From assembly GCA_000002445.1 (NCBI GenBank), contig CH464491.1, forward strand, positions 320,001 through 384,000: a stretch of DNA of 64,000 bases, in the 5' to 3' direction. The stretch is from Trypanosoma brucei. Lineage: Eukaryota. A model generated the notes under the pieces. It did not search any database. It was not told the DNA's origin and saw only the letters and a program-made list of their open reading frames with translations. This document shows, piece by piece, positions 8,168 to 49,700 of this stretch. The position numbers were made by a program, and so were the translations under genes. Every line of letters starts with the position of its first letter. Position 1 is the stretch's first letter.

Positions 8168-9166
8168 ATGCAAGGGCAAAACCAAGCAGCAGTGGATGGC
8201 ACTATGGCCTACACCTTTCAGCACCCACCACAGGGGTTCTTACACGCACAATACAGGGATCCTCACAGCAGTGTAGGCCGTAAGCAATATGCCAATATTA
8301 TGCATGACCGTCGTGTGTATCGCGGGAATACGTACGCCGCCGTGCCCATGTCAACATATGCGCGAGACGAGGAAGAGCGAGTGGTTCGCGAGGCAAACAG
8401 ACGTCGCAAGGAACTTCAGCAGCGGGCCACTTCTATAAAGCGTCGTAAAGAACTTGACGCAGCCCAACGGAAACTTGCGACTCCGCCCCCCGTTGTTGGA
8501 CGGCAGCACATAGAAGTACAAACGGAGGAATTCCTCGAGGAACTGAAGGATGAGGTGGAAGTGGTTCAGCAGGAAACACAAACTGATCCCCTTCTCGACC
8601 GCCCTGCGACACCACCGTATGTTCCTGTAAAGTCTGGTCGTGATGCGGAGTCGCAAATTAATGAAGGAGATTTGTTTCACTTCGACGACGCCGTTGACCC
8701 GATTCTCGATGTTATGGTTGGAAAGACACTTGAACAAGCGATGTTGGAGGTATTGCAGGAGGAAGAACTGGAACTTCTGCGGCAGCAGCAACTGGAGTTT
8801 GAGCAACGACGCAAGGAGGAGTTACTGGAGGCACAGCGACTTGAAGCTCGTGAGAAACGCCTCTTTGAGGAGAAGGAGCGGCGGAAAAAGCAGGAAATCG
8901 AGCGCATCAAGCGCGAGAAGGCTACACGTGAGAAGCTCCAGGCCCGTCAGTTTGCCAAGATGTATTTAATGAACCTCGAAAACCGTGTCTTTGCAAGGCT
9001 TCAGGATGAGGGCTGGTTTCGTGATCGCGTATTACACGAGGTGGAGTTTGACTTCTTCCCGTGGCTCATGGATCAGGTCGCGGTGGAACTTGAAAAGAAG
9101 CAGCGGGCGCGTGTGTTGGTAGACGATCTCATTCGCCAAGTAGTTGCCATACAGTTGAATAGCTGA
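8168..9166 (+). CDS. RSP3: Radial spoke protein 3 (axonemal radial spoke stalk/AKAP).
   Basis: Carries the motif ANIMHDRRVYRGNTYA, characteristic of RSP3 (Chlamydomonas NIMFDRRVVRGNTYA). An acidic/coiled-coil C-terminal half follows, as in RSP3. The ORF is ATG-initiated and 332 aa. Confidence 0.8.
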   Translation: MQGQNQAAVDGTMAYTFQHPPQGFLHAQYRDPHSSVGRKQYANIMHDRRVYRGNTYAAVPMSTYARDEEERVVREANRRRKELQQRATSIKRRKELDAAQRKLATPPPVVGRQHIEVQTEEFLEELKDEVEVVQQETQTDPLLDRPATPPYVPVKSGRDAESQINEGDLFHFDDAVDPILDVMVGKTLEQAMLEVLQEEELELLRQQQLEFEQRRKEELLEAQRLEAREKRLFEEKERRKKQEIERIKREKATREKLQARQFAKMYLMNLENRVFARLQDEGWFRDRVLHEVEFDFFPWLMDQVAVELEKKQRARVLVDDLIRQVVAIQLNS

Positions 9167-17133: not shown

Positions 17134-18721
17134 ATACAACGAGAAAAAACCGGAAAGAAAAAAACATAACATATTGAACAAATCGAAGAAGGGTGTACTT
17201 TGTTCTGCGAGTAAGAAGAGGGTGGAGGAATCGTATTTTTCCGATTTCTTGATGAACGTTCGCCTTTTTTTTTTATATATTTTAAGAGGACTATTGTGGT
17301 TGCATGTGGGTACAAAAGAAGGAAATAAATGAAATGATAATAAAGTGTGCATTTATGTCTTTTTCGTTATCATTTTACTTTTCGTTCATTCATTTTATAT
17401 TCTTTTTTTCCAGCTTCAATAATTCCGTTGTACCTTATTGTTCTAAATAATGTATAATCGTGTTACAATCCCCGTGTCCCATGTTTTCTTCACCTACGAC
17501 TTTTCCCTCTCCTTCTAAAAAAAGAGAAGAATGAAAAATATAATATTAATGAGCTTTCTTTAATTGTGGTTACTGTTATCTGTACTATATTTTTCAATGT
17601 TTTTTTGTTTTTGTATTTTTCGCTTTAGCATATTTATGTCAATAAGATGCGGGAGCGTTCACGAGAATTATTAGTTGTGTGGTTGTCGTCTTTGTTATCT
17701 CCGGCACAACACCTTATGTGCTTATTGTGTGGACACAAGAGAAACAGAAATGGGAGAAGGGGGATTTTTTTTTTTTAAAAAAGAAGAACCTTTTTTCGTT
17801 TTATTTTCGTATTCGGTCGTATAATCCCACTTTTCGTTACTTTTATCTCTATTACCTCTTTTCATTTTGCTTCCCGCTTTCTTCTTTTAACTTTTCCCCC
17901 ATCTTCCTCTTCCCAAGTTTCTTTTTTGTATAGTGTGCTGAAGTTTGCGAGACTGAGCGAGACTGTTACACGTTACAACAGTCGTAATGGTATTATTATT
18001 ATTATTATTAAACAATGATAATAATAATGATAATAACTTTTGCTAGTGTTATTATTACTATTTTGATTTCCGTCTACGTTCTATTTATTTTGATTTTGCC
18101 TTCTGTTACTTTCTTTATTACTTTAGTTGTTTTAGTTCCAGTTTCACTTTTTTGTTGTTTTGTGTGTATGTGTGCATTTTGCGTGTTTGTAGTAGTTATT
18201 CAGTGCCCACTCCTCCCTTCTCCCATACGCTCAGATTTCCTTTATTACGCTAGAAGGAAGCAGAGCGAACACGCATACACAAAACGAATAAAGAAAATTT
18301 AAAATGAAAAAAGAGAAAGAAAAGAAAAGTACTCTCCATCATTCCTCTTTATTTTTCCATATGAGATCCTGTTGGCTCCCATCTCATCTCATCACTTCTC
18401 CCGTTATCTGTCTCCTCACAGTGTCAGTGGCATCGGCGCCAGATGATTATTTGCATGTTCATTGCTTGCGGTTCTTTCCAGTCTAAACTAAAAAACAACA
18501 AAAACTTCGCTTTTCCCCCTATTTCATCTGATTATTCCCTTTTGTAATCGATTTTTTAAAAAAAATGTTTATATGCGTACAACGTGCGTAGATACATTTT
18601 CTCTAATATATATATATATATATATTGATACGCAAGTAATTATAAGAGAATCAAGGCGGAGGGGTTCAGTACGTTACTTTAGGCGTAAGGGGTGGCGGGA
18701 AACTGAAACGGGTTGGATATC

Positions 18722-19699
18722 ATGTCTGATACATTAAGTAGCAAACTAGACGATGTCGATGCGGATGTTTTGCGCGGCGCGTATGAGCCCGTAGCGATTA
18801 TCGGAGAGGGAACTTATGGTGTTGTCTTCCGTGCACGTGGGGTTGCGAGCGGGGCCGAGTTTGCGATAAAGAAACTAAGAAGTGACAAGCTGAAGGAAGG
18901 CGTTCCTGCAACAACACTTCGAGAAGTGACGCTGCTGCACGAAATGAGTGACAATCCAAATGTGGTGCGACTGCTCGATGTTCTGTGCTCCAAGCGTCGT
19001 GTTTATTTGGTGTTTGAGTTGCTTAACGAAGATCTGAGGTCTTTTATTCGCCGCAACTATCCGCAACCACCCGCTACTGCCAGTAGCTCTGTTGTACCTT
19101 TGAGACTCGTGAAAAATTTTACCTGTCAAATGCTTCACGCCTTGTGGAGGTGCCACCAGAATCGAATCATTCACAGGGACCTTAAACCTGCAAATGTGCT
19201 TCTCGGGGTAAAGAAGTCAACGAGGAATGACGGCGAGGATTCGTACATTTTGAAACTGGCGGACTTTGGGCTTGCGCGTACTTATGAGATGACATTGTTG
19301 ACGTATACGAAAGAAGTAATGACGTTGTGGTATCGTGCACCAGAGATTTTGCTTGGGGAGCGGCACTACACGCCAGCCGCAGATGTGTGGTCGGTTGGTT
19401 GCATTGTGTTGGAGATGATTGTTGGTTGTCCTGTTTTTAGAGGTGAGTCCAACCGGGACCAGTTAGATAGGATCTTCTACACTGTGGGAACACCGACGGA
19501 AGAGACATGGGCTGGCGTAGCAATGATGCCAGGATATGACAAGGCAACGAAAATATATAAGGTGGCGCCTCTCCATGAGCGATTGCCGACATTCGATAAG
19601 GAGGCAGTACAGTTTGTTGCATTTCTTTTGCAAGTCAATCCAAAAAGCCGTCCCACTATTCCTACAATTCTTCAACATCCTTTTCTGCAAGGTGACTAG
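18722..19699 (+). CDS. cdc2-related protein kinase (CRK/CDK family).
   Basis: Carries the Gly-loop IGEGTYGVVFRA, AIKK lysine, a PSTAIRE-like helix EGVPATTLREVTLLHE, HRDLKPANVLL, DFGLAR, WYRAPE and DVWSVGCI. There is a ~12-aa insert before the DFG. The first ATG is 18722 (MSDTLSSK...). Confidence 0.85.
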   Translation: MSDTLSSKLDDVDADVLRGAYEPVAIIGEGTYGVVFRARGVASGAEFAIKKLRSDKLKEGVPATTLREVTLLHEMSDNPNVVRLLDVLCSKRRVYLVFELLNEDLRSFIRRNYPQPPATASSSVVPLRLVKNFTCQMLHALWRCHQNRIIHRDLKPANVLLGVKKSTRNDGEDSYILKLADFGLARTYEMTLLTYTKEVMTLWYRAPEILLGERHYTPAADVWSVGCIVLEMIVGCPVFRGESNRDQLDRIFYTVGTPTEETWAGVAMMPGYDKATKIYKVAPLHERLPTFDKEAVQFVAFLLQVNPKSRPTIPTILQHPFLQGD

Positions 19700-24627: not shown

Positions 24628-25086
24628 AGTTGACTTGAAATGTTCGCACTGATGGTTTTGCGCAGTGATTTTACAAACTTTTGTGCATTTCTGGAATAGC
24701 TGCCAACTATCTGGATGCGGCATCGGTGTCTTCTCTCTCTCTCTATATATATATACGTTTTTTTTAAAAAGTCATGAATGTCCTTACCCACGAAATTCCC
24801 TTGACGTTACGTGGTCATCTGGGTTTGGCTTATTGGGGGAGTTGGGTGTGATCAAAAGTCCCCTTAATAGTTTTCACGCGAATTCATTGCATCGGTTTAA
24901 AATATTATTATTATTATTATTACCGTTATATATGTTCCTTTTTTTTTTGTCGTCAGCAAGTGCGTAAGTTGAGCACTTCCCATTCCCCTTCCCCTCATCT
25001 TTTTTTCTTTTGACCACCGTAGCTCTTCTCTGGTTTTTCTTCTATAATGATAAGTTTTAGTACAGTAAGTGGAAATAACTGACTCC

Positions 25087-26778
25087 ATGAGCAACAAATA
25101 CCTTTTGGATGAGAAGCAACAGTTTATTAATGGGATTGGCACCGAGTTGGCATGGGGATGGTCTCCAGCGATAGATTTTACCGAATTTTTGAATACAAGG
25201 AAGAGGGAACAAACTCTTGGAAAGGGGCCTGAGGGCACCTCAGAAGTGGTGAATCCAACTGTATCCGATGACAAAAAGTCCAGCCAAGAATCAAGTTGCC
25301 TTACCAAAGAAGAAAAGGATATTGAGTCGATGATTGCGACTATCAAACAGCGCTCAGTGGAAGATAAGGAAAGAAATGGATCTGATGAGCCCGGTGACGT
25401 GCGTGTGCTTCTTTGCGGAGCATGTGATATACGCCATGTTTTCCGCACCCTTTCCAGTTTACGGGTGAAGGGATCACTCACATCATCGGGGGAGTCAGTT
25501 GATCCTACGTGGCACTTCTATTTTTATGAGCCCAATCTGCGCGTGCATGCTCGTCACCTATTTTTCCTCAAGTGGCTGTTAGACAGTACTTTTTCTCTCG
25601 ATGAGCTTGAAGAGAGGGTGCTAATGTTCCTTGATGTTTTTGGTAATGCCATGACACGTGACACAACGGCTGCGCAGGTGCGAAATGTCGCCCAACAGCT
25701 ACTCAATGCGTTGCGCTCTGAGGGTGGAGGAGATCTCGCTGAGTTGGTGTCCTTTGCAGAAATGAAGGAAAAGGAACGCGACTTTGTGGAGCAGCAGATT
25801 GTGCACTGGACGCGTGATCGCTCGGTAGCTCACGTGGAAGAGACCCGCTCCAAACGCCTGAGGCAAGAGATGGCGGAGCGTTTCGATAACCGGGACAATA
25901 TCATTGACTGGGACTTCCACTTTCATCTGAATGACTACACAAACCTAATCAAATTTACAGAATATCGCACATGGCGCAACAATGGTGTTGCTTTCGATGC
26001 GACACACATCAACCCACGCCGTGAGTTCACGTATACTTACTCGGTTCCTAACAAAACGCTCTGCCACTTTAACAATAAAGGGGATGGTGTTTTCTTGGGT
26101 GATGTGAAGAATGGGCCGTTCTTTGCCTTGGGGGCACAAACTGCGAATACACACATTCGTTCCAGAACTTTCGATGGCACGTGTAAATATGGCAATGGTG
26201 TTGTCTCGATGCATAATATTCGTGCGTGGTTATATGGTCTCATGACAGGGTTGCGGTGGCCGTGGAGTGACCACTTATTTGCGTGGGATGATGCCTCTAA
26301 CTACAATTGGCTTCCAGAAGGTACCCCCAAAGACGTTACGCACCAAACCACATTACCTAAGGTGAAGTTTCATTTCATTGGTTTGGACTTGGACCGCTTC
26401 CTAAAGCGGATGCGGGATAAGGGAAGACAGAAGTTTGATGCAGCCTTTGTTGGGACAGGATGCACGCAGTTTATGACTCCCTCCTTTTTTGAGATTGCAA
26501 TGATGGAGGACGCTGTCGTGGTTGCGGAAACTGCAAAGTTTGTTATAGATATGAGAGATGAGGGCAAAAAAGCTTTTGTTAACAAAATATGCGAACTGGC
26601 TCGTGCGGCTAACTGGAACCGAAACGAAGACATAACCAAATCTCTTCACAAGGACCAGCCAGATCCTCAGAAAGTTGACGAGAACTCATCAAATAACAAG
26701 GCAGCGCTAATGGCGAAGGAGCGGTACGAAATGCCCTACCAAATAGCCCTTACGCGTTGCTGCTCTGTGGTGGCGTGA
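25087..26778 (+). CDS. DNAAF3: Axonemal dynein assembly factor 3-like (DNAAF3/PF22 family).
   Basis: The N-terminal WGWSPAIDF...VRVLLCGACDIRHVFRTLSS resembles the DNAAF3 signature (human ...SWWGLSPALD...DVLLLGSVDGRHLLRTLS). The size (~560 aa) is compatible. The first ATG is 25087; the ORF-track start at 25069 is GTG. Confidence 0.5.
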   Translation: MSNKYLLDEKQQFINGIGTELAWGWSPAIDFTEFLNTRKREQTLGKGPEGTSEVVNPTVSDDKKSSQESSCLTKEEKDIESMIATIKQRSVEDKERNGSDEPGDVRVLLCGACDIRHVFRTLSSLRVKGSLTSSGESVDPTWHFYFYEPNLRVHARHLFFLKWLLDSTFSLDELEERVLMFLDVFGNAMTRDTTAAQVRNVAQQLLNALRSEGGGDLAELVSFAEMKEKERDFVEQQIVHWTRDRSVAHVEETRSKRLRQEMAERFDNRDNIIDWDFHFHLNDYTNLIKFTEYRTWRNNGVAFDATHINPRREFTYTYSVPNKTLCHFNNKGDGVFLGDVKNGPFFALGAQTANTHIRSRTFDGTCKYGNGVVSMHNIRAWLYGLMTGLRWPWSDHLFAWDDASNYNWLPEGTPKDVTHQTTLPKVKFHFIGLDLDRFLKRMRDKGRQKFDAAFVGTGCTQFMTPSFFEIAMMEDAVVVAETAKFVIDMRDEGKKAFVNKICELARAANWNRNEDITKSLHKDQPDPQKVDENSSNNKAALMAKERYEMPYQIALTRCCSVVA

Positions 26779-27166: not shown

Positions 27167-29509
27167 ATGTCGGATTTCGTCGATATTAATGTGAATACGC
27201 AGCCGGCCAGGGCGAATACCATCAGTTGGTTTGACGCAATTAGCCCTGGACGTGCCTCCCGGGTTGTAACACCTGCCACTTGTCCTCCACCCAGCAGCAC
27301 AAACATGTCCACAAAGGAAATACGCCAGAGTGACCTTGCGGTTACACAACGTCATCAGGAAAATGACCTCACCGTTTCGACAATATGTTACGACGACGAA
27401 AGTAACAGCTCACTGTTAAGGCGCTTAAACTCCACAGTAACGCCACCTCGTCCGCATACTAATTTAACCGATGGCGAAATGGGCACTTCTGTGGTCCTGG
27501 GTGAATATTCTACCGCTGCTGCCGCATCGCCACAACGACGGATGGTGAGTTCAGGAGCCGTTCCTCGTTCGCGTAGGCGGTGTGATGACATGTATGAGGA
27601 AGCTGTTCGAGGGAAATTGGCTAAAAGGCAGTGGGCTGCCGCCGAGCAAATTCGGCAATCGATTCTCGAGAGAGCGCGTATTGAGCGGGATTGCACGTTC
27701 CAACCTCAACTCTCCCCATATGCAAAAAAATTACACCGCCCTTCTCACCTTGCACCGGAAAACCGCATTTATGAAGAGCTTATGCGAAAGAGTGAATGGC
27801 GTGCACAGAAGCAAAAGGAGCACATTGAGGATGAGTTGAAGGGTTGCACTTTTCGACCGCTGACTGTGCAAGCAGCTAAGCTGAAATCATCGGCTCATGT
27901 ACGTGACTCTCATATCTTTAGCGAGCTCTATAATCACCATGAAGAGCAGCAATACTTTCGCGACGAACTTCGCCCGCGCGTGGTACAGCATTTGGAACAG
28001 CAAATACTGTACAAAAACCCATCCAATAAAATAGTCTCGGAGAACAAGATGAGTGAGGTTGTGGAGCGACTTATTTCCCGGGGCGCCATTGTACAGGCCG
28101 ATCGGCAAAGGGCGAAAAGCGCTGCTATTAGTTCTGAGACATTCAAACCAGCTATCAGCACCAAGTCGGAGCGTATTGTCTCACGACAACAGGATGCCGG
28201 TTTACTGTCGGAGGATGTGTTGGAACGGTTAATGAATCCGCCAAAGACGATGTCGCAGGATCGGTGTCAGCGCCGTGAACGTGAAGAAAAGTTATTTGAT
28301 GAGGATTTCAAGGAGATATGCTCCGAGTATTTGAAAGGTGTTCGCGTTTCGTTGCGGAAGGAATTAGAAAAGAACTTTATCTCCGCCAAATTCGATGCAT
28401 TGGCAGATTACATTCATAGAGAAGAACCCGATTACAAGGGATGTGACAGTCGTGTTGACAAGTACCCCATCAAACAACTGTTGAAGGCTGCTGTTTCTAT
28501 TCTCTCAGCAGAAGAGGGAGATGAGTTGGTGCACATACTAACACACAGTAGGTCTCCCGCTCTCAACCGAAAGGGATTTGTTACTCTGTGTCTGAAGGCT
28601 TTAGCAGTGGTTGAAGACCCACGCAGTAGTGCTCTGGCATCACTACCACCACCCCCTTCTAATTCAGGAAATGGAAACCGCACCGGATTTGTCGATAACA
28701 CCGACAAGAATCGTAGGGATCATTTGAACCGCTTGCGCCACAACATGTCACCCGAGGAAGTTGCGGCCATAAAGGCAAGCGCATTGGAGCGGCAGCAACG
28801 GCGCACTGAGGAGGAACTGCAACGGCAACGTGCAAAAGAAGAGGAAGAGATGAGGGAATGTACCTTCCGACCTCAGACAACCAGAAAAATACCACGTGAA
28901 TGTCGTTCTGGTCGGTACACAAACGTGAGGATCACCAAGGGGGAGATGCTCCGCCGAGCGCATATTCGAAAATCAAGGACTGAAAGCGTGGAAACCCCTA
29001 GTTTAGACCTACCAATTCCTCTGGTGAGGGATATATTTAAAAAACTAAAGATTCCAACAGCGTTTCCTTCACCGCAACGCAGAGCGCATAGCGCCGGTGC
29101 ACACCCTGGCGTTTGTGGGAAGCACCGCCAGATACGTACAACGGCCGTGTTGAAGTCACCCAAACAGCGGGTGAAATCCACGAGCAGACGAAGCAGAGCA
29201 GAAGGGGACCAACAGGGCGTTGCTACGCGTGCCGCTTCTGCCGTCGATAAAAAGAGTCATTTCCCAGCAAAGTCAAAGGGTAAAGAAGAGGCCGCATGTG
29301 CAGCAGTTCCGTCTGAACAAAGTTCGGAGGATGCTGCTGAAACTTATACCGGCCGCTCGTTTGATGGCAACCCTTGGCCAAATGCAGGAGCCCTGTTTCG
29401 TGATGCGGCTTCTGAGCATGGCGTTTTTGGTGGTGAGGGAGCGCTCACTGATCTTGGAAGGCAGCTGATTTTACAGCAACTGCGCGAATACAGAAGTAGG
29501 CAACGGTAA
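27167..29509 (+). CDS. Hypothetical protein with three dispersed (D/E/G)CTF(Q/R)P motifs and basic/charged low-complexity regions.
   Basis: 780-aa ORF. The motifs are IERDCTFQPQ, LKGCTFRPLT and MRECTFRPQT. The first ATG is 27167 (MSDFVDINV). Upstream ORF-track sequence (27068-27166) is a translated pyrimidine tract. Confidence 0.5.
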   Translation: MSDFVDINVNTQPARANTISWFDAISPGRASRVVTPATCPPPSSTNMSTKEIRQSDLAVTQRHQENDLTVSTICYDDESNSSLLRRLNSTVTPPRPHTNLTDGEMGTSVVLGEYSTAAAASPQRRMVSSGAVPRSRRRCDDMYEEAVRGKLAKRQWAAAEQIRQSILERARIERDCTFQPQLSPYAKKLHRPSHLAPENRIYEELMRKSEWRAQKQKEHIEDELKGCTFRPLTVQAAKLKSSAHVRDSHIFSELYNHHEEQQYFRDELRPRVVQHLEQQILYKNPSNKIVSENKMSEVVERLISRGAIVQADRQRAKSAAISSETFKPAISTKSERIVSRQQDAGLLSEDVLERLMNPPKTMSQDRCQRREREEKLFDEDFKEICSEYLKGVRVSLRKELEKNFISAKFDALADYIHREEPDYKGCDSRVDKYPIKQLLKAAVSILSAEEGDELVHILTHSRSPALNRKGFVTLCLKALAVVEDPRSSALASLPPPPSNSGNGNRTGFVDNTDKNRRDHLNRLRHNMSPEEVAAIKASALERQQRRTEEELQRQRAKEEEEMRECTFRPQTTRKIPRECRSGRYTNVRITKGEMLRRAHIRKSRTESVETPSLDLPIPLVRDIFKKLKIPTAFPSPQRRAHSAGAHPGVCGKHRQIRTTAVLKSPKQRVKSTSRRSRAEGDQQGVATRAASAVDKKSHFPAKSKGKEEAACAAVPSEQSSEDAAETYTGRSFDGNPWPNAGALFRDAASEHGVFGGEGALTDLGRQLILQQLREYRSRQR

Positions 29510-30885: not shown

Positions 30886-32232
30886 ATGGTGACCACACAA
30901 CCTAACCAGAGGCGGAAGCAGGGGCGTGCGCATTCTTTGGGTATGGCGTCAGAGCAACGTGAGTATGAAGCCATAATGGCACAAATAAAGAATATCATGC
31001 TACTGGCCAATGAGGAACCACCACAAGGTGAAGATGAGGCCTCCATTGCGAAGCGCATTGACTTGCTTCAACAGGCCCTTGGAGCATTGGAGCAGAGGGC
31101 GAAGGACAACCAACTGATGGTGGAAGTGATGCGGACAAATTTACTGAACAAACGGCAGGAGCGGCTCGTGGAAACGGCTCAGCAGAGACAGGAAAAGTTG
31201 TCCAAGAAGCTAGAGGAAAGAGAAAAGTTTATCCACCTTTTGCAAGAGGACCGTAAGTATATGCTAAGTCAAAAACATGAGGTAGCGGACTCACGAATGG
31301 GTTTGGTGCAAGAGAACGCGTACAACTTGTTCACAACAGCACATGCAAAGGCTGAGGCCGAAAGGCAGCGCAGGGAGAAGGCCGTAGAAAGGATTTATGA
31401 GGAACGGGCGCGTGCGGTAAAGGAACACAGGGACAGAACACAACAGCGCGAAGACCAGAATCGTGAAGCTCTGCTGAGGCAAAAGAAACAGGAGAAGCTC
31501 CAGCGCCGGCAGAGGGAGTTGGAAATTCAAGAGCACGATAAGTACGTGGCGAAACGGCAATACGAAGCGGACAGAAAGCAACAAGAGGCAATGAGGGAGC
31601 AGTGGCAACCGTATTTGCGTAACGGCGCTTCAAGCGCGAATGCCCTGCAACGTTGCGGATCTGGTATGACTGCACATGAGGCTGCGCGTCAGAACCTTAT
31701 GGATGAGTTGAAGGAAAAGGAAAAGCAACACCAGGAACGATACGAAGAAGAGCAGATAACTAGACGTTACGAAATAGAGAGACGGGCCTACAAACATAAG
31801 GAGCGGCAAGAGAGGCAACGCCAGCGATACAGTCAACAGCTGGACGAGAGAATAAAGCGTGGTGACGAAATAATTGCGAAAGCGCAAGAAAAAAAGCGAC
31901 GTGCTGAAAAGGCTCAGGAAAATCGTCAGAAGCAAGAATCAGACGCGGGCGCTGCATTTGCTCGGGACGTAGAGGAACACCGAAAGCGGGCTGAGGCCAT
32001 TCAGTTGCAGCGCCGAGAAAAATTTTTGAGACAGAATTATCTTCGATGGAATGAGCGTGCTGCTCTCGTCATGCAGCATCTGCAGGATGTCTTTCCGCCT
32101 GATGGACGTTGCACACTTTCGGGAGAGAAACCTTGCGGGTTCCTCCCCACGCTTGCTCCATTTCTTGTTAACAAGCGCGGAAATCAGCAACAGAAGAGAG
32201 CTAACACCGTAGGTTCTAACAAGGTTTCATAA
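30886..32232 (+). CDS. Highly charged R/E/K/Q-rich coiled-coil protein (trichohyalin/TPH-like; possibly flagellum or cytoskeleton associated).
   Basis: 448-aa ATG ORF dominated by ERQRREKAVERIYEERARAVKEHRDRTQQRED-type heptads. Confidence 0.45.
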   Translation: MVTTQPNQRRKQGRAHSLGMASEQREYEAIMAQIKNIMLLANEEPPQGEDEASIAKRIDLLQQALGALEQRAKDNQLMVEVMRTNLLNKRQERLVETAQQRQEKLSKKLEEREKFIHLLQEDRKYMLSQKHEVADSRMGLVQENAYNLFTTAHAKAEAERQRREKAVERIYEERARAVKEHRDRTQQREDQNREALLRQKKQEKLQRRQRELEIQEHDKYVAKRQYEADRKQQEAMREQWQPYLRNGASSANALQRCGSGMTAHEAARQNLMDELKEKEKQHQERYEEEQITRRYEIERRAYKHKERQERQRQRYSQQLDERIKRGDEIIAKAQEKKRRAEKAQENRQKQESDAGAAFARDVEEHRKRAEAIQLQRREKFLRQNYLRWNERAALVMQHLQDVFPPDGRCTLSGEKPCGFLPTLAPFLVNKRGNQQQKRANTVGSNKVS

Positions 32233-34559
32233 GCAACCGCGTGGCCGAATGGTGATTTTTCTTTTTTTTTAAAAAAAAAGAGGCATACGTCTCTTGGTGT
32301 TCATTGTAAATAAATAAACGTATATATAAATGTAAATATATGCCACTTTGTTGAAGTGTACTCGTATAAAAGTTTTTTTTGTTTGTGTCTCTTTGCGCGG
32401 GTGTTTTCTTATATATAAACATATACAAATCCTCATGTGTGCACAAGGTGTAGACCTCTTTCAACAGGACGAAAAACGATATACTTTTTATACTTCGTGT
32501 GCCATCATCGATCAAACAAATCAAAAAGGAAAGATGTGGTTTATGCAGCGGGAAGTGGCAAATTTCTTTTTTCGTTTGCTCATTTCTTTAATATTTCAGT
32601 TTAATTGTGTAGGTTATACTGGAATAGAAGGGATTGAAAAGGGAAAAGAAATACATACGAGAGAGGAGGAGTGGTGGAGGTGAACAGGTGTGAATGACAC
32701 AATTTTTTTTTCTAAATTTCTCTTCCACTGTGCTTCAGTAGAGGAGTTAAAAAACGGAAGAAGGGGAGAACATTGTGCATGAAATTATGAGAAGACAAAA
32801 AAGGAAGAAGGAAATACCAGAATAAAATATTTAATTTTTTTTGAAATATACACGCTTATATTTTTTTCCCCCTGTTTTTAAAATCCTACCCCTTTTTTTC
32901 CTATATTTTTCTTTTGCGTGCATGATTGATTTCGCTCACTCCACTTGCGTCTCCCCGTGGATGGAATGGTTGGAAATTTAAAATATTAAGTGAAAACTAA
33001 AGCACAAATACGACATTAAAAGCGCTGGACAAGGTGGAAGGAGAATGAACGTGTGTGTTTGTGTGTGTTGGGTGTCAAAAGATGAAAATTAAGAACAAAA
33101 ACATTACGTATATAACTAATTATAAATATGAACAAATATATAATCATGTATAAACGGATAAATATATGTATTCGAATGTCAAACTAGAAGAGAAGGCAGG
33201 GAAGGTATCCTTATAATTTATTCGTTGGGTGCGGTTGGCGACGTAAGTGTTCGATATCACCTCTCTTCTGCCGCTGCCCATGTGCTTTATTATTTTAGAC
33301 GCGTGCGCCTGCAGGCGCATCATCCGGAAATTATTTTTTAAATTTCCTATTATACTTTACTGCGTTGTTGACGCTGTGGAACAGCAGCCGTCACGCAACT
33401 CGCACACGTTATCTTCTTCTCACTCTTTGGGGGAAAAAAAGGGAAAAGAATTAAAGGAGTAAAGGTGAGAAAGAAGAAAAGAAGAAAGACCTAAACTTTG
33501 GGTACACGTCAGTGATTTTTTTTTTTTAAATTCAAGTTGTTGTTGCTTTTGTTGGTTCCTTTTGCTAATGAACGGGAGCGGATATGCCATATCATCTTTT
33601 ATTGCGTTTCTGCTTTTATTGTGCTCGGTTGCTCGTTGGAGTGGGGCACATTGAGCGGCGTTTAATATGCTGTCAGTAGAGAGAAGGAAATAAAGAAAAA
33701 CGAAGGGGAGAAAATAAGAAACGAAAGAAAAGGATATAAAATAGCAAATGGATACCCGCATGGTAATCATTTGTCCCTCGTGTTTGTGTGCACGAATTTA
33801 TACTTTTTTTTTGCGCGTTATCATCGTTTTGTTATGCGTTGGTGGGTGCGCATGAATAGAGAGAGAAAAGGAAACGATGCGTGTACTCGTGTAAAAGTGA
33901 GGATGACTCATCTAATCCCACGTATTTACTTCAATATATTACACCACAAGTGTGATTTTCTCCCCCCCCTTTTTAAAAAATTCCTTTATTGTTATACGCC
34001 CTTCTTTTTTTTCTTTTTACTCAACCAACTTCTCGCTTATCGAGACGACAGCTCTTTATGTTTTTGTGTTTGTATTGTATTATTACCTCAATACATGCAA
34101 TCTATTCTATTTATCATCTTCTCTTCTTTTCTTTTTTTTTTCGTGTTGTGTGTTTAATCGAATTGGAGCGTTTTTGCATGCACATCGCCCCCTTTTCCCT
34201 TCTTTTCTTTTTTTTTTGCTTTACTTCTTTTCTTTAGTCCTTCTCTTCTACCGTCACGATCATTCCCCCTCTCTTGTTATTTACTGGGGGAGGGAAACTG
34301 CCGCAGTTGATGATAAAGGGTGCAAGGAGCGAAATAAATTAACATATATATATATATATGTTTATACGCCTACCTGTAATGTATATGTATGTATACCCAC
34401 ATCACACTCTTTTTTTGTTGCTTTTGGTGATGCGCTTGTTAACCGCAATATGCGAATGGATATGCCCTCTTCTGGTGCTCTTTTAGAGCCTTTGTTCTTT
34501 CTCTCACTTTCTTACAAATCATTGAAATTTTTGGTTTATTATTATGCAAGTACTTGTTT

Positions 34560-34662
34560 GTTTTTTTCACTTCCCTCATTTCTCATCGGACAGTTGCGTT
34601 TGCATTCTTTTCTTTTCTTTTTTTCTTAATTGTATTCCCCCCTCCCCCTTGGCACTGAAGTT
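34560..34662 (+). promoter_or_regulatory. Example poly-pyrimidine tract plus AG, a putative spliced-leader trans-splice acceptor region, upstream of the membrane-protein CDS.
   Basis: ttttttttcacttccctcatttctc...tttcttttcttttttttcttaattgtattcccccctcccccttggcactgaag precedes the first ATG at 34693. Comparable tracts precede every CDS in the window. Confidence 0.4.
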
Positions 34663-34692
34663 AGTGTATGGGAGGAAATAGTTGAGAATACA

Positions 34693-35940
34693 ATGAGTCA
34701 CACAATGACAAATGCTTCTACTCTCATGAGCATAACAGTTTGCGACCCCAACATGAAAGGTACAGGATTGGAAATGGAATGTTTACGTCCATCCATGCAC
34801 ATTCCCGAACTGGTGCTCATTCCTCCCATTTATGTGTTGATAATATCGGGGTTTCTTTGCACTTTAGTTAATGCCTTCTTCAACTACGTGTCTTTCGGGC
34901 GGAGCAGCATCACAACCGCTATGGAAAAACACACTCGTGTGAAAATGCTTATTCACCATTCACTTATCGTCCGAGATATGGAGGGGCACACCAGCGTGTC
35001 GAGGAGGGACAATATTTACAATGAAACTGATCATCTACTAACTCATAGTAATGTTAGCGTAGACCATAATGACAGCGCTGTTTTCTTTCAGGGAATATTA
35101 AATTCTGATGCTTTAGGGTTCGAATCACCAAGAGTTCCCGCCTCCGTGGCGGACGAGGCGCTATATGGTTCGTTGGAATGTATCCGACGCGTAGGACAGC
35201 AAATTGTATTTTCACACAACCCCAAGTATATGATCATATCGATCACGAAAAGTTTGGTGATGCTCTTGGTGTTACAATACCATTTTGACTACAATGGAGG
35301 GTGGGACAGGTTTGTAGTGTGTACGGCTGCGAACTTGATGAGTGGTTTGCTTACTCCCGTTTTGGAGTATGGTGCCGAGTTCCTGTTACAACTCGACCCC
35401 GATAGCAATCTAAAGGTTGCTCAGGAGCACGATGAATTGGATGATGTGGTACTTATTTCGAGAATACTCACGCGGATCGGTGAATTCAAGTTGGAAGACC
35501 TTGAAACGGTTTTGGTGCAGGGCTGTACATTTATTGTCTTTGGTGCGGTTCTCCTGCCTCCGGTATTTGTCTTTTGTTTGGTGGGTGCTGCTATGTTTTT
35601 GTGGTTGTTCGGACCGTTGTGGTTCGCTTACGGATACTTCCGTCACCTTTACTATAAGCCAAGGCAAAGCAAAGGGTTGTCATCTCCGAATGCCCGCGGG
35701 TGGCTGCGTATTACCCCATTCCGTGAACTTGCGAGGATAGTGTTATTAAAAGCAGTGACGTTGTTTTTACTTCAGTGGACAGTTCAATGCAGTTTTTTGC
35801 TCGGTTTGATGTTGTTGCAAGGTGAAAGCTATTTGAAGGCTCTCCATTTAGAGGTGAAACATCAGTTATGGAGATGGAATAACCCTCTGAAGATGGGTGG
35901 TTTCCGACTTCTTTGCCTTGTCAGCCAACTTTTGTTTTAG
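34693..35940 (+). CDS. Hypothetical polytopic membrane protein.
   Basis: The ORF has several hydrophobic helices: LVLIPPIYVLIISGFLCTLVNAFF, VFGAVLLPPVFVFCLVGAAMFLWLFGPLWFAYGYF and VTLFLLQWTVQCSFLLGLMLL. The first ATG is 34693, after a C/T tract and AG. The ORF-track start at 34630 is TTG. Confidence 0.45.
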   Translation: MSHTMTNASTLMSITVCDPNMKGTGLEMECLRPSMHIPELVLIPPIYVLIISGFLCTLVNAFFNYVSFGRSSITTAMEKHTRVKMLIHHSLIVRDMEGHTSVSRRDNIYNETDHLLTHSNVSVDHNDSAVFFQGILNSDALGFESPRVPASVADEALYGSLECIRRVGQQIVFSHNPKYMIISITKSLVMLLVLQYHFDYNGGWDRFVVCTAANLMSGLLTPVLEYGAEFLLQLDPDSNLKVAQEHDELDDVVLISRILTRIGEFKLEDLETVLVQGCTFIVFGAVLLPPVFVFCLVGAAMFLWLFGPLWFAYGYFRHLYYKPRQSKGLSSPNARGWLRITPFRELARIVLLKAVTLFLLQWTVQCSFLLGLMLLQGESYLKALHLEVKHQLWRWNNPLKMGGFRLLCLVSQLLF

Positions 35941-38803: not shown

Positions 38804-39412
38804 ACAGCTTTGTTGAGGTCTCCATTATCTAGTTGAGAGATTTTTTATCGTAATAGTGTAGTCATTATACGCAGTTTATATTTGTTTCCCCTCCCCCAGA
38901 GGTTTATGTGTAATGGTCACACGACAGGAGAGCACAACGTCTGTGCGAATATATGGTGTACTGTTCCCGTTGGAGCAGTTGTTGGGAGACAGAGAAGTGC
39001 TACGGAAAGGAAAGGGGTCACACTCTGGAAGTCGAAAATGAAGTAAGTACCTTCATTGTCTATGGTTTGAAGGTGGTGGATGAGTGGGATCTGTCCCCCC
39101 TTGTCGCCTTGTACGTGGGGATTTTCTTGCCACTATTTCACACAGTCTTTTTTTTTGCCTTTACCTGAGATACTTGGTTGCCTCTTCTACATTGAATACT
39201 GTTCCGCGGTTGAATAGTAAAGACGCAGTCGAAGTGGGCTTCAATAGTGTCATCAGTTACTAAGCGATCATCTTGCTTACAATATCGGAAACATCTCCGA
39301 CTGAAGCCAACACAGACAGAAAAGGCTCGGCGTATCGTGAATACCATTGTGACTCTTATTTACGGCCGCTTCAGTCTACATCGGCAGTCTTCAACGTTGA
39401 GACGTGCCAGTA

Positions 39413-42298
39413 ATGGAGGAGAACAACGCAACTACAGGGCAGAAGCGAAGGCGCAGAAAAAACAAACGAGGACGGGAAGCTCAGCGGCCCACTGATTCAG
39501 ATGAACTCCAGCCTCTCGTTTCCTATGGTTCGTTGGCACAAACTCCCCTCTTAGCGGAAGAGCAGTCAGTGGGAGCAGTGAGCTTGAGCGCGCAGACGGC
39601 TGCTGCACCTTCCCCTGTCGTTGTGCCGGAGTTTACGGAAGCCGCTAAGAGTTCACCAAGTAGTGTTCAATTGCTGGGTGGTAGTACTGTCGCTCTGGTC
39701 GATAAGACGGTGGAAAGCCACTTCAGCCTCCACGGCCTTCCGTGTGCATCGTGCGCTTCGCATATTGAATCTCACATCGGTGAAATGGGTGGTGTGGCGC
39801 AAGTTACTGTGAACTTTGCATCTTCTCATGCTGTCGTCGTCCACAATCCTCATGTGGTGGGGGCAAGTCGCATCACGGAGGAAATGGAAGCAATGGGATA
39901 CACCGCTGTACTGATCTCCGCCCATTCAGACGATGCCGAACAGTTAGATAACTTGGGGGTGAGGGAATTTGAGCTGCTCATTGGTGGAATGACTTGTGGT
40001 TCATGCGTTTCAAGAGTGCAGTCGGCTCTTCTGGAGATCGATGTCGTGAAAAGCTGCACGATTAACTTTTCGACAGGTACCTGTAAATTAACTATGACCG
40101 GGGGTCGCGACTCTCTGAACTGCGTACAAGAAGAGGTGAAAAAGCTGGGTTACACTGCAACACCTTTGGAGGAGCGAGGGTCGGGAAATGCAGTGGATGT
40201 TATGAAAGAAGCTCTTGAGCGAACGAAGGAAATTCAGGCCCATAAGCGTGCCTTTGTCTTATCCGCCGTTTTGGCGACGCCGCTAGCTGTCTTTATGATC
40301 TTGATGACTGTCACCAAGTACTTCGAGGACATTACTACCATGGTCATCGTCAACACTATTCAACTATACCTCGCAACACCCATCGTTTTTTACTGTGGTT
40401 CTGGTTTCTTTTCTCGCGCGTGGGTTAATCTGAAACACCGTACGTTTACAATGGATACGTTAGTTGCCCTCGGCGCAGGCTGTTCCTATCTTTATTCGGT
40501 GGCGGGGCTGATCACAATGTTTTTAATGAAGCGGCACGTTACAACATATTTTGACACAGCGGGGATGTTAGTGGCTTTTATGTTACTCGGCCGCTACCTG
40601 GAGGCGTACGCTAAGCGTCATACTAATGATGCTCTCATTAAGCTCATGAACCTTGTTCCACCGACGTCACTTGTTGTCACTCCCGCAGGTGATGTTTCGA
40701 TGCCGTCCTCGACTGTAAAAAAGGGAATGCGAGTTCGCGTGCTCGCCGGTGACCGCGTTCCAGTTGACGGCGTACTTGTGGAAGGAAATTCCGACGTCGA
40801 TGAGCAGATGGTAACTGGAGAATCAGTGCCAAAACCTGTAAGTGCTGGCGGGACTGTTGTTGGTGGTACCACGAACCTCACGGCCATGATCGTCATAGAG
40901 GCAACAAAGGTTGGTGAGGAGGCCGTGTTGTCCCAAATCCTTCGCGTAGTTCGGGAGGCCCAGAACAGTAAACCGGCTATTCAGCGGATTGCCGACAAGG
41001 TTGCAGCCCGATTTGTTCCCGCTGTTATTATCTTTTCCCTGGTTGTCTTAGCGGTTTGGTTACTTCTTGGGGCTTTCAACCTTTACCCGAGTGAGTGGCG
41101 TGGAAACAATGAATCGACAACGGTCTTTGCGTTTGACTTCTTCATTGCGACGATTGTCGCAGCCTGCCCTTGCGCCCTTGGCTTGGCAACGCCTACGGCC
41201 ATTATGGTGGGAACTGGTGTTGGGGCAAAACATGGAATACTGGTTAAATGTGGGATGACTCTCGAGGCTATGCGCCGCACTCGCTGCGTTGTGTTTGACA
41301 AAACGGGAACCATTACGAACGGTACCTTGTGCGTTGTATTCCAAAGGCGCTGGGGTAATGGCGCCGATGCAGCAGTTGACGCGGTAGGGGCAGTTGAACA
41401 ACGGTCGAATCACCCAATCTCTCGAGCAATCGCGGTTTGCGTTGCCTCTGATCCTAAAAGTCAAGTAGCCGCCTATGAAGTAGTGACTTCCACGGTACAC
41501 AGCGGCCTCGGTGTGAAGGCAACGGTACAACGCAAGGACAGCGGTCACCAACTTAACGTTTTCATTGGTAACATGGACATGATGTTGAGTTCCGGTATTG
41601 ATGTTTCTGGGGAAGTGGCTAAGGTTGTGCGTTGGCAGATGGGGCTTGGCCGAACAGTCACTCTCGCTGCCGTTGATGGAAGCGTACGATTTCTTGCTGC
41701 TCTGGCAGATGAGCCAAAGGCAGAAGCTGCTGGTGTCATTCGATTCTTAAAGCGACAAAACATTCGTGTTTTCATGGTAACAGGCGACAATCCCGGCGTC
41801 GCAGCGGCTGTAGCGCAAGCAGTGGGGATTTCTCAGGAGGATGTCTATGCAGGTGCCCTTCCTGTCACCAAGGCTGCTGTTGTGAAGGCGTTTCAGGAGG
41901 AATATCGGGATGTTGTGTTTGTGGGCGATGGAATAAATGACGGCCCAGCACTGGCGCAAGCGAGTGTGGGTGTTGCCCTTGGTGCGGGTACTGAAATTGC
42001 CATTGAAGCTGCCGATGCGGTGCTGGTGCGAAACAGTTTAGTTGACTTGCTAAATCTTCGAGCACTTTCCATTACAACAGTGCGCCATGTTTACGGTAAT
42101 TTTATGTGGGCCTTTGGCTACAACGTGTTGATCCTCCCACTAGCAAGCGGGATGTTGTATCCTTTTCTGCACGTAAGGGTGCCCCCTGTCGTCGCCGGGG
42201 TTGCAATGATTCTTTCGAGCCTTAGTGTGCTTATGTCTAGCCTTTCCATTCGCTGTTTCTCACCTTACAAACGGGAACAGTTCATTGATATCATTTAG
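39413..42298 (+). CDS. Copper-transporting P1B-type ATPase (ATP7/CopA-like).
   Basis: Two N-terminal HMA domains (GLPCASCASHIE; GMTCGSCVSRVQ). It has the TM CPC motif (ACPCALGLATPTA, ~41160), the DKTGTIT phosphorylation site (~41296) and TGDN and GDGINDGPALAQASVGVALG hinge motifs. Confidence 0.9.
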   Translation: MEENNATTGQKRRRRKNKRGREAQRPTDSDELQPLVSYGSLAQTPLLAEEQSVGAVSLSAQTAAAPSPVVVPEFTEAAKSSPSSVQLLGGSTVALVDKTVESHFSLHGLPCASCASHIESHIGEMGGVAQVTVNFASSHAVVVHNPHVVGASRITEEMEAMGYTAVLISAHSDDAEQLDNLGVREFELLIGGMTCGSCVSRVQSALLEIDVVKSCTINFSTGTCKLTMTGGRDSLNCVQEEVKKLGYTATPLEERGSGNAVDVMKEALERTKEIQAHKRAFVLSAVLATPLAVFMILMTVTKYFEDITTMVIVNTIQLYLATPIVFYCGSGFFSRAWVNLKHRTFTMDTLVALGAGCSYLYSVAGLITMFLMKRHVTTYFDTAGMLVAFMLLGRYLEAYAKRHTNDALIKLMNLVPPTSLVVTPAGDVSMPSSTVKKGMRVRVLAGDRVPVDGVLVEGNSDVDEQMVTGESVPKPVSAGGTVVGGTTNLTAMIVIEATKVGEEAVLSQILRVVREAQNSKPAIQRIADKVAARFVPAVIIFSLVVLAVWLLLGAFNLYPSEWRGNNESTTVFAFDFFIATIVAACPCALGLATPTAIMVGTGVGAKHGILVKCGMTLEAMRRTRCVVFDKTGTITNGTLCVVFQRRWGNGADAAVDAVGAVEQRSNHPISRAIAVCVASDPKSQVAAYEVVTSTVHSGLGVKATVQRKDSGHQLNVFIGNMDMMLSSGIDVSGEVAKVVRWQMGLGRTVTLAAVDGSVRFLAALADEPKAEAAGVIRFLKRQNIRVFMVTGDNPGVAAAVAQAVGISQEDVYAGALPVTKAAVVKAFQEEYRDVVFVGDGINDGPALAQASVGVALGAGTEIAIEAADAVLVRNSLVDLLNLRALSITTVRHVYGNFMWAFGYNVLILPLASGMLYPFLHVRVPPVVAGVAMILSSLSVLMSSLSIRCFSPYKREQFIDII

Positions 42299-46710: not shown

Positions 46711-49700
46711 GTCCGTCTGTCCTGCGCATGCATGTGTGTCCTTTTTGTATTTAATCTTTTATATTTCCCACCTTTTCTCGTCCCATTTTTTGACTTGTTT
46801 TTTGTTCACTTTTGGGTGGATGGGAGTGCAAAAACTGGGGCGTTGCGATACATGAGGTCAACGAAGGTGAGGAAATGTAGTGGACGCGCATGTTGCGTTG
46901 TGCTGTAGAGACAGGGAGTTTTTTTTTTTTTAATTGTAAATAAAAACACCGACGGAAGACAGATTGTTAGTATATTTGGGCAAATTTTGTTCGGTAGTGA
47001 TAGCTAACGATAACGACAGAAGTTACTCACCATTAACGGAAACCGAAATGGGCACAAACGGCAAATATGATGAATGAAAATATCGGAAAAGAATAACAGT
47101 GGGAAGATACAAATCAATAAAGACAACTTCACAACATAAAAGGGCGGTAAAGCATAAGAGGTCAACACCTTTTCGGGTGTTTATTCATTCATTTATTTAT
47201 TCATTTATTAGTCGTTATCAATTTTGAATATCAATAACGATAAAGTGATAATAATAACTTTTAAGGGACGTTTCATTTAATTTAACTCCATTTCTTTTTT
47301 ACTTGTATGTGTGTATATTTTGAGTGTATGTGCATCAGCGACACAATTTCGTTTTGGTCGTTTTTATGACTAGAAGATTTTATGGGAAGGTGATGCAACC
47401 TTTCTTCTTCCTTTTCTTTCCCTTCCCTTCCCTTTCCTTCCCTTCCCTTTTTTTTTAAAAAGAAAATTGACTGTTTCCTGTGGAAAGTGCGTTACCGAAA
47501 GAAGCTTCTGCAGGAACATTTTGGGGTTTTATAATTAAAATAAAAAAAATATTAAAAAATAAAATAATGATAATAATGAAATAACAACAGTAATGAGGAG
47601 AAAGAACTGGGAAAACCGGGTTCGATGGTGACGAAGAAATTCTTTCAAAAGGATTCCGTTACCTTTTTCTCTTCAAATTAAATAACAACAACGGCAGCGA
47701 CAAAAACAAAAAACGGAGTGAAAAGGAATAAAAATATCATAATGAAGAGCGTCACTGGAACCTCCAACGGAGTAATTCCGTTTCCTCCGGCAGTTTTCAA
47801 CATCACGATTTAGTCGGATAATCACGGTAATTTTTTTTAAAAACCTTTTTTTTATTTTTGAAAAGGAATATGTATATAAACATGTGTATTCAAATATATT
47901 TAAATCTAAAAGCGGTAGACACACAAACACAAACATATAACATTTATTTATATAATATGAATGGGTTTGTTTGCATGTGTGACTGCATATTGTAAATATT
48001 CGTCACTATCATAGAAAAAAAACAAGATTGTACATGTATGATTATATGTAAAACATAAATTATAGACCCAATCGACGCACACTTTTTCTTTTGTTTTCCT
48101 TTTATTGAAACTTCACCAATATTGACGATGCACCGGAGGAAAAAAAAAAGGAAAAGAAATACCGTTGGTTATTATTATTATTATTATTATTTAAATTTAA
48201 AAAGAGAACATTTTTTTTTTTGTGCCTCGCTTTTCCACCGCCCTTTTCATGTTTTTATTTTCCCCCTCTCACCCTTAACACCTGAAAAAAAAAGCCGTTA
48301 TTTCAAAGCCCGCTTTCTTCCTTAAATTAATTAAACTCTCGAAATTGCACCTCTACCTGTGTCCTTGTCCACGAAATTAACAGCAGTTTTTAATTTTCTT
48401 TTTCCTCCTTAATTTTATCCCAACATTTTTTTTAATAACCTTTTTTAATTTCCTTTTCTTTTTACCTTCCAATCCTCACTTTACTTTCTCTTTTTTTTGT
48501 TTTGTTTTCATTTTTGTCACACTGCCCGCACCCACCCACCCCCTCCACTCCAATAAGCAAACACACACATATATTTATATATATTTATATATATATTTAT
48601 TTATATGAAGAAAGAAAGAAAGAAAAAAATGCGTTTACTCAACACTGTTTAAAAAACACCTCTTTTATTTCTCCTTTTTTTACTTTTAGTTTTGCATTTG
48701 TTTTATTGTGCATACGCCGTTTTTTTTTTTTGTTGGCATTGTTGTAGTGTTCCGTCGCCCGCCCACAATGTTCATTGTTTTGTTTTGTTTCTGGTCAGGT
48801 TAGAGAGAAAAGGGTGACACCTCAAGCAAAAAAAAATGGTGAAGGAAAGTTAATTATTTAATAAAAGAGTTGGGGAATCGAGAATGCATAACAGGTCGCA
48901 GCATCACATTGCCCGTCCTTTTTTTTTCCTCTTTCTCTCCACTACTTTCTTTCTTATTACAATATTAATAATTATTATTATTACTTCCCCCTTTTAAATA
49001 TTTAAATATTTTTTTCCCCTTCTGGTGTTGTTCCACCGCATCACACGCCTCAAAAACATCTTCGCTTTAACTCATGCTAACAATTTAAAGCAGCGAAAAA
49101 TGATTGAATAATTAGCGACAGCATTTATTCAATAATTTTTGCTTGTTTGCTCTTTACAGCTGATGGAATGAAATGGCTCAGGGGCAAAAGTTGCAGCTTT
49201 TATAATAAAGGCGACGATGGTGTGATGGTGGAGTCATATATATATATATATATTTATTTATTTATTTATTTATATATTTATATATTTATATTTATTTCAT
49301 TTGCCTGCATTTTCACACCTGTTTTTTTTTGAATTGTGTGTGTGTGTGTACATGTGCATGCATATTTTGTTTCAATTTTTCATGTATCTTCCTTTCCTAT
49401 TTTTTTATATTTTTCTTTATATATATATATATATTTATTCAACCATTCATATACACACCACTTGACACTATCACGTTTGTCTCTGTGTGTTCTTTTTTTT
49501 TTGAAAAAAAAATAATTTCCCATATATATACGTCTTCTATATATCCACGTTTGTGCGCTTATCTATACATGTATATATATACATCTATATGCATCTGTAT
49601 TTGATTTTTGATTGATTTGACTGAACTGCGGGCGGCGGAATCGTAAAAGAAAAAAAGAATGAGGCATTGATTTTTTTTTTTTGAAAAAGCAAATATGTAG

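Follow-up and report, generated by a model that had tools for sequence, protein, structure and literature searches.

A repeated CTFxP module in a trypanosome protein assigned to the microtubule quartet, and its similarity to Toxoplasma CIP3

Introduction

In trypanosomes it is the microtubule quartet that organises both the flagellar pocket and the flagellum attachment zone, yet few quartet proteins are known. One of them, Tb927.11.1220 of Trypanosoma brucei, was found as a BioID proximity partner of the microtubule-bundling protein TbSpef1, is placed at the quartet by TrypTag, colocalises with TbSpef1 on the proximal quartet when tagged with mNeonGreen, and leaves the basal bodies along with the quartet upon RNA interference against TbSAF1 (PMC7291619). 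It served purely as a marker in that study, where neither a domain nor a motif of the protein was described (PMC7291619). Here we analyse a 64,000-nucleotide stretch of T. brucei DNA (GenBank assembly GCA_000002445.1, contig CH464491.1, positions 320,001 to 384,000, forward strand; hereafter the window), and in particular an open reading frame (ORF) that encodes a 780-residue protein with three CTFxP motifs and that very probably corresponds to Tb927.11.1220.

The closest described counterpart of these motifs lies in CIP3 of Toxoplasma gondii, which in 2017 was annotated as coiled coil plus disorder only. CIP3 is now described as an extended 'molecular glue' of the conoid fibres (PMC12819142; PMC12905489). 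Besides winding around protofilaments 2-5, it spans the seam and pierces the tubulin wall. Elements of CIP3 also assemble into a cluster together with SAS6L and PRP, and they interact with CF1 and luminal proteins in addition to tubulin (PMC12819142). The structures that host the two proteins differ, being open 9-protofilament conoid fibres for CIP3 and the four rootlet microtubules of the quartet for the trypanosome protein. Furthermore, CIP3 (1010 residues) has orthologues confined to coccidians and no detectable full-length similarity to the trypanosome protein.

We describe below a repeat that the two proteins appear to share. While the quartet localisation has been published, the repeat, its wide spread and the link to CIP3 are absent from Pfam and from the searchable literature; searches of full-text literature for CTFKP, CTFRP, CTFQP and CTFxP returned only irrelevant papers.

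Results

Three conserved CTFxP motifs

An earlier sequence-only reading of the ORF had noted three CTF(Q/R)P motifs, each preceded by acidic and followed by basic residues, in a protein with no enzyme motif. The three motifs are indeed present, at residues 176, 227 and 565 (CTFQP, CTFRP and CTFRP, Table 1), as are the flanking acidic and basic residues, and the absence of an enzyme motif is consistent with the complete lack of Pfam matches. The spacing of ~60 and ~330 residues given at that time was an estimate; the measured Cys-to-Cys distances are 51 and 338 residues.

Given the composition of the protein itself, the expected count of CTF[QRK]P in 780 residues is 2.2e-4, and the probability of three or more occurrences is ~2e-12. 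Even the bare tripeptide CTF was found three times in none of 20,000 shuffles. All six frames of the window contain only one further CTF.P, a CTFRP at nt 3709, which was dismissed because its frame is not that of the ORF at that place.

Relatives of the protein recovered from a search of 5.8 billion proteins come from trypanosomatids only. The T. b. gambiense orthologue is 99% identical, and others are from T. congolense, T. melophagium, T. theileri, T. vivax, T. rangeli, T. conorhini and Porcisia. Loss of the motifs, which would have refuted the sequence-only reading, was not seen in the aligned orthologues. Instead, C176, F178 and P180 of the first motif, all of C227-T-F-R-P231, and C565, T566, F567 and P569 of the third are invariant, despite an overall identity of 26-51%. 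An exhaustive profile search of 1.84 billion representative sequences extended the family to 42 proteins, including those of the prokinetoplastids Apiculatamorpha and Papus. In a 33-sequence family alignment there are 12 invariant columns in all, every one of them within residues 176-254, the part of the protein that holds units 1 and 2 of the repeat described below. The third motif is more variable at its first position, as Leishmaniinae-like homologues carry Y, F, A or H in place of C565 and mostly keep TF.P (one has AF.P).

Two environmental, euglenozoan-like members of the family, P0024 (1704 residues) and P0025 (1840 residues), keep the first two repeat units, the third, the central domain and the C-terminal helix described below, with large acidic or low-complexity insertions separating these conserved elements. 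Such insertions indicate that the elements act as separable modules.

Repeat units and protein architecture

The CTFxP motif is the core of a repeat of ~50 residues that consists of a long helix, E-C-T-F-x-P-x-(I/L), ~20 further residues and h-x-E-R-L-Y, which we refer to as the ECTFxP-ERLY module. The core, written as [ED]-C-[TS]-F-x-P-x-[ILVT], is found in three copies in the 780-residue protein, and a Cys-less ETFKPAI at residue 324, missed in the sequence-only reading, aligns with the canonical units as a degenerate unit 3. The downstream element h-x-[ED]-[RE]-L-[YFH], ~20-30 residues past the Cys, is represented by IYEEL in unit 1, IFSELY in unit 2 and VLERLM in unit 3, and is divergent (MLRRAH) in unit 4. 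Comparison of the units by hhalign gave E values of 5e-5 (unit 1 against 2), 2e-5 (1 against 4) and 1.7e-6 (2 against 4), with a weaker E of 2.7e-3 for unit 3 against unit 1. Judged by this profile similarity, the CTFxP motifs sit in mutually homologous repeat units.

Each unit has its own pattern of conservation. In unit 1, C176, F178, P180, R191, P192, P197 and R200 are invariant in the 33 family members, and with few exceptions the family places unit 2 exactly 51 residues after unit 1. Unit 3 follows unit 2 at 97 residues, about two periods, and its P328 is invariant in the eight orthologues and nearly so in the 33 sequences. Unit 4 has a second conserved Cys, C579, 14 residues past the motif Cys.

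An AlphaFold2 model built on the family alignment places the Cys-containing motifs directly behind long helices (residues 138-175, 197-226 and 529-564), with pLDDT of ~70-90 around the helix and motif regions and a pTM of 0.32. Disorder is predicted for the N-terminal 136 residues and for residues 609-748. Between units 3 and 4 lies a central helical domain with an arrangement like that of an EF-hand pair. Unlike EF-hand pairs of the centrin/calmodulin class, its loops (REEPDYKGCDSRVDKY and THSRSPALNRKG) depart from the canonical D-x-[DN]-x-[DNS]...E pattern: the calcium-ligating positions are not acidic, as seen in THSRSPALNRKG, and the family alignment has no conserved acidic ligands. The domain has no Pfam EF-hand match and its structural scores are modest; Foldseek searches of the PDB with the full model and with the domain model returned no match with E<0.07. 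We consider it an EF-hand-like domain that probably does not bind calcium. At the C-terminus, a helical element in which G764, R765, L767, L769, Q771, R773 and E774 are invariant among the orthologues recurs in distant family members, and may serve in docking or oligomerisation. A Pfam scan of the 780-residue protein and seven orthologues found no family, and no TPX2 match, at E<=10.

Table 1. Coordinates of the coding sequence, its motifs and domains, and neighbouring genes. Nucleotide positions are those of the window; residues are those of the 780-residue protein.
Feature	Residues	Nucleotides	Strand	Description or basis
Complete coding sequence	780 in all	27167..29509	+	ORF and translation; first ATG; exact match to XP_828213.1 / Q387D0
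Motif RDCTFQPQLSPY, C176-T-F-Q-P180	176-180	27692-27706	+	Translation
Motif KGCTFRPLTVQA, C227-T-F-R-P231	227-231	27845-27859	+	Translation
Motif RECTFRPQTTRK, C565-T-F-R-P569	565-569	28859-28873	+	Translation
Repeat unit 1	138-205	27578..27781	+	38-residue predicted helix ending at C176-T-F-Q-P180, then SPYAKKLHRPSHLAPENR, IYEEL
Repeat unit 2	206-262	27782..27952	+	Helix 197-226 up to C227-T-F-R-P231, then LTVQAAKLKSS, IFSELY
Degenerate repeat unit 3	318-357	28118..28237	+	Cys-less E324-T-F-K-P328 (nt 28136-28150), then AISTKSERIV, DVLERLM
Central helical domain	392-492	28340..28642	+	EF-hand-pair-like topology; would-be calcium positions degenerate
Repeat unit 4	529-608	28751..28990	+	Helix 529-564 ending at C565-T-F-R-P569, then conserved RKIPxEC...V.V..TK..LRRA
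Conserved C-terminal helices (...LTDLGRQLILQQLREYRSRQ)	747-779	29405..29503	+	Predicted helices 747-754 and 759-779
RSP3, Tb927.11.1150		8168-9166	+	Synteny anchor; Radial_spoke_3 ORF
CRK6, Tb927.11.1180		18713-19699	+	Synteny anchor; kinase
DNAAF3-like protein		25069-26778	+	DUF4470 + DUF4471
TbATP7, Tb927.11.1260		39404-42298	+	Synteny anchor; copper P-type ATPase

Similarity to CIP3

Four profiles of the module were compared with all PDB sequences, and each time the sole credible match was T. gondii CIP3 (TGME49_225020, PDB 9y9z chain 63). Its E values were 5.9e-5 with the single-unit profile, 0.017 with the kinetoplastid tandem, 3.6e-4 with the mixed tandem and 3.8e-5 with a broad tandem of 32 sequences. 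The tandem profiles cover CTFHP...ECTFQP of CIP3, residues ~561-638, as one stretch, and the single-unit profile finds it as two separate stretches. Further Cys-less units are seen in CIP3 near residues 234 and 484, and an hhalign comparison of the CIP3 fragment with the kinetoplastid units yielded a probability of 96.9%. By these profile matches, CIP3 and Tb927.11.1220 share a module. In addition to sequence there are links in fold, and the two proteins may share a domain as well.

Distribution of the module

The module spreads much wider than kinetoplastids. The weakest matches of the 1.84-billion-protein search were short environmental proteins with tandem ECTFxP...ERLY units, and the family profile A1 retrieved the multi-repeat proteins P0047, P0050 and P0051 from that set at E values of 5.6e-6 to 5.8e-4. 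Units 1 and 2 of T. brucei align in register with non-kinetoplastid units, including IYEEL/FSELY opposite ERLY, and a joint profile of this mixed alignment (A5) matched 216 proteins at E<=0.1. Their sources include ciliates, a dinoflagellate, stramenopiles, a green alga and Naegleria, among them Paramecium sonneborni, Blepharisma stoltei, Symbiodinium microadriaticum, Phaeothamnion, Amphora, Amorphochlora, Dunaliella salina and Naegleria lovaniensis. The consensus drawn from 284 units in 121 proteins is E-x-L-x-E-C-T-F-x-P-[KQ]-[IL]-[NS], mostly in 1-6 strict copies per protein, with Cys-to-Cys spacings that peak at 40-60 residues and again near 100. A single-unit profile of 45 columns (A2) found no match in the 5.8-billion-protein set, where it is too short to reach significance.

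The uncurated tandem-repeat proteins of Paramecium, Blepharisma, Symbiodinium, Dunaliella and Naegleria share with the T. brucei protein the core motif, the period of ~50 residues and h-x-E-R-L-Y. They are mostly 250-430 residues long, contain little besides 2-6 repeats and have no known function, whereas the trypanosome protein arranges four units around an extra globular domain and has long disordered N- and C-terminal regions. A Pfam scan of 120 module proteins found no family that matches the module, none that is common among them, and no PF06886.

Comparison with TPX2 and other microtubule proteins

The closest known repeat in style is that of TPX2, in which a helix precedes an aromatic-basic-Pro motif (F-K-A-R-P), and the resemblance to the ECTFxP repeat goes no further than style. 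Membership of the TPX2 family (PF06886 / PF12214) is not supported, as neither the trypanosome protein nor any of its orthologues or of the 120 module proteins has a Pfam TPX2 match; similarly, no TPX2 chain appeared in the PDB searches with the module profiles. It should be noted that one Blepharisma module protein is named 'TPX2 C-terminal domain-containing protein' in UniRef, and that a Dunaliella module protein has a sub-threshold match to TPX2_importin (PF12214, E 0.055). Three module proteins (P0088, P0097 and P0137), the Dunaliella protein being one of them, end with a TPX2-like ...GLGR(F/Y)xEL(R)xLA...(T)VPxPF(x)L/I(x)T/S... sequence. This ending may reflect a genuine relationship of the module to TPX2-type microtubule-associated proteins.

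A repeated '...V.RLY...', resembling the second half of the module, is present in two proteins of kinetoplastid doublet microtubules, ArcMAP4 of Leishmania tarentolae (PDB 9e78 chain 3f) and MOP23B of T. brucei (9e2g chain 4P). The weak similarities to ArcMAP4 (E 0.73), MOP23B (E 8.2) and PF6 are not significant (range of E 0.68 to 8.2).

Gene identity and neighbourhood

An exact-sequence look-up identified the ORF protein as XP_828213.1 / Q387D0, which T. brucei brucei TREU927 encodes on chromosome 11. A TTG-started extension from 27068, giving 813 residues, was discarded, as the ATG at 27167 reproduces the database protein exactly. The large ORFs of the window are all on the + strand, and three of them could be matched to published genes as anchors (Table 1). 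Seven genes lie between the CRK6 and TbATP7 ORFs, and seven identifiers lie between Tb927.11.1180 and Tb927.11.1260. Since these counts agree, the 780-residue ORF falls at Tb927.11.1220 and the ORF at 30886-32232 at Tb927.11.1230. A literature search by protein accessions found nothing, and the supplements of the TbSAF1 paper contain no primers or sequence that would confirm the gene identifier directly.

The downstream neighbour at 30886-32232 (+), Tb927.11.1230 by synteny, encodes 448 residues that are very rich in E, R, K and Q and has no Pfam match. Tb927.11.1230 is reported to occupy the distal axoneme in procyclic forms and the axoneme along its whole length in bloodstream forms (PMC10209625). 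Within 25 kb, one polycistronic unit holds four genes for the flagellum or cytoskeleton, namely RSP3, the DNAAF3-like gene, the quartet protein and the axonemal Tb927.11.1230. Further downstream, the ORFs 33952-34629 and 34630-35940 (+) are in the same frame with one stop codon between them. The first has the F/L/S-rich translation of a pyrimidine tract, is almost certainly intergenic or untranslated region, and was not counted as a gene. The second probably starts at a downstream ATG (MSHTMTNAS...), and its product resembles a membrane protein. Finally, AT-rich stretches are found at 48001-50000 (GC 0.30, also with negative GC skew) and 6001-8000 (GC 0.355), compared with a GC of ~0.45 elsewhere.

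Discussion

Based on our results, we favour with moderate confidence the reading that the product of the ORF is a structural protein without enzymatic function that associates with the quartet microtubules, and that its CTFxP units serve as lattice-docking repeats. The earlier proposal of a repeated, non-enzymatic module that binds the lattice or a partner is largely supported by the homology of the units, the quartet localisation, CIP3 and the lack of enzyme domains. We envisage a unit as a charged helix of 30-38 residues that is ended by E/D-C-T-F-x-P and followed by an extended Ser/basic-rich segment of ~20 residues, with h-x-E-R/E-L-Y/h opening the next helix. The helix-breaking Pro and the hydrophobic Cys/Phe pair would form a docking knob on tubulin, and successive units would meet consecutive subunits of tubulin or consecutive protofilaments. 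Together with its linker, a helix of ~4.5-5.7 nm would span about one lattice spacing, which is 4-8 nm along a protofilament and ~5 nm across. Several units could then staple protofilaments or neighbouring quartet microtubules, or wrap them as CIP3 does on conoid fibres, while the EF-hand-like domain and the conserved C-terminal helix may hold partner proteins.

A number of observations weigh against this reading. The relationship with CIP3 is weak by sequence and extends no further than the module and perhaps a domain: the full-length family profiles A1 and A3 and the 350-residue profile A7 found no CIP3 match in the PDB, nor did the single 780-residue sequence. As the full-length profiles show no link and CIP3 is restricted to coccidians, we claim a shared module and not orthology. 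In the PDB searches with the module profiles, no axonemal or subpellicular microtubule protein was found to carry the module, and the module is therefore not a general feature of lattice binders. We infer both the contact of the CTFxP residues with tubulin and the stapling role; the quartet localisation itself could come about via a partner such as TbSpef1. In addition, the identifier Tb927.11.1220 is derived from counting gene order and not from a direct record.

A further-reaching version holds that ECTFxP-ERLY is an ancient, pan-eukaryotic tubulin-lattice-binding repeat, and that Tb927.11.1220 and CIP3 are true homologues sharing both the repeat and the EF-hand-like domain. We regard this version as possible, yet doubtful.

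Among the alternatives, the one that survives best is that the CTFxP units bind partners, such as TbSpef1 or other quartet or basal-body proteins, rather than tubulin, so that the association with microtubules would be indirect or reside elsewhere in the protein. This possibility was already raised in the sequence-only reading. It is in keeping with the detection of Tb927.11.1220 close to TbSpef1, itself a protein that binds microtubules and bundles them (PMC7291619), and with the engagement of several proteins besides tubulin by CIP3 (PMC12819142). However, the module also forms tandem arrays of 2-6 copies in short proteins of very different eukaryotes that have no other domain, a distribution for which a universal periodic ligand such as tubulin is a better fit than lineage-specific partners. 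We therefore consider partner binding a minority possibility, if one to be taken seriously.

The motif could also be purely intramolecular, a helix C-cap and turn that packs the helices into a helical-hairpin or spectrin-like rod and is kept for folding. The AlphaFold2 model, in which each Cys-containing motif stands at a helix C-terminus before a short linker and the next helix, agrees with such a role, and a Pro behind a hydrophobic pair is a common helix stop. Nevertheless, the moderate confidence of the linkers and the low pTM mean that no compact fold is predicted; the linkers are Ser/basic-rich and variable in length, as is typical of extended ligand-binding segments, and the homologous part of CIP3 belongs to a protein described as extended (PMC12819142). 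An explanation by helix capping alone thus seems improbable to us.

The conservation of the Cys raises the question of whether this residue is functional in itself, as a metal ligand between units, a disulfide or redox switch, or a site of S-acylation. Of 419 residues that precede [TS]F.P, 312 (74%) are Cys, compared with 1.3% Cys overall in module proteins, and the additional conserved Cys of unit 4 could be viewed in the same light. Yet 90 of the 107 replacements are L, F, Y, M, V, A, W or I, and the Leishmaniinae-like orthologues exchange C565 while mostly keeping TF.P. Moreover, there is a single Cys per unit without a partner His or Cys pattern, and the protein belongs to the cytoskeleton, in a cytosol that is reducing. 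Because its substitutes are mostly hydrophobic, the residue pattern suggests that the motif Cys acts as a small hydrophobic residue and not as a metal or redox ligand, and we hold a specific Cys chemistry to be very unlikely. Lastly, that the recurrence is due to chance or is a by-product of low-complexity charged sequence, to which the E-, R-, K- and Q-rich flanks of the motif might point, is refuted by the composition-based probability, the invariance of the motifs among otherwise divergent orthologues and the significant profile similarity between units.

Under the preferred reading of the CTFxP units as lattice-docking repeats, a repeat shared with a tubulin binder seen by cryo-electron microscopy offers a testable mechanism for the grip of Tb927.11.1220 on the quartet. 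The repeat family comprises more than 200 proteins from at least five eukaryotic supergroups. All these proteins have been annotated as hypothetical, and they become candidate microtubule binders. Should the motif bind partners instead, it would still be a previously undescribed and widely conserved linear repeat.

If the homology with CIP3 is true, the flagellar-root quartet of trypanosomes would be molecularly linked to the conoid fibres of apicomplexans. The conoid has been proposed to derive from flagellar-root microtubules, and a pan-eukaryotic lattice repeat, if confirmed, would favour this origin. It would also provide a sequence handle for rootlet and cortical microtubule proteins in any protist.

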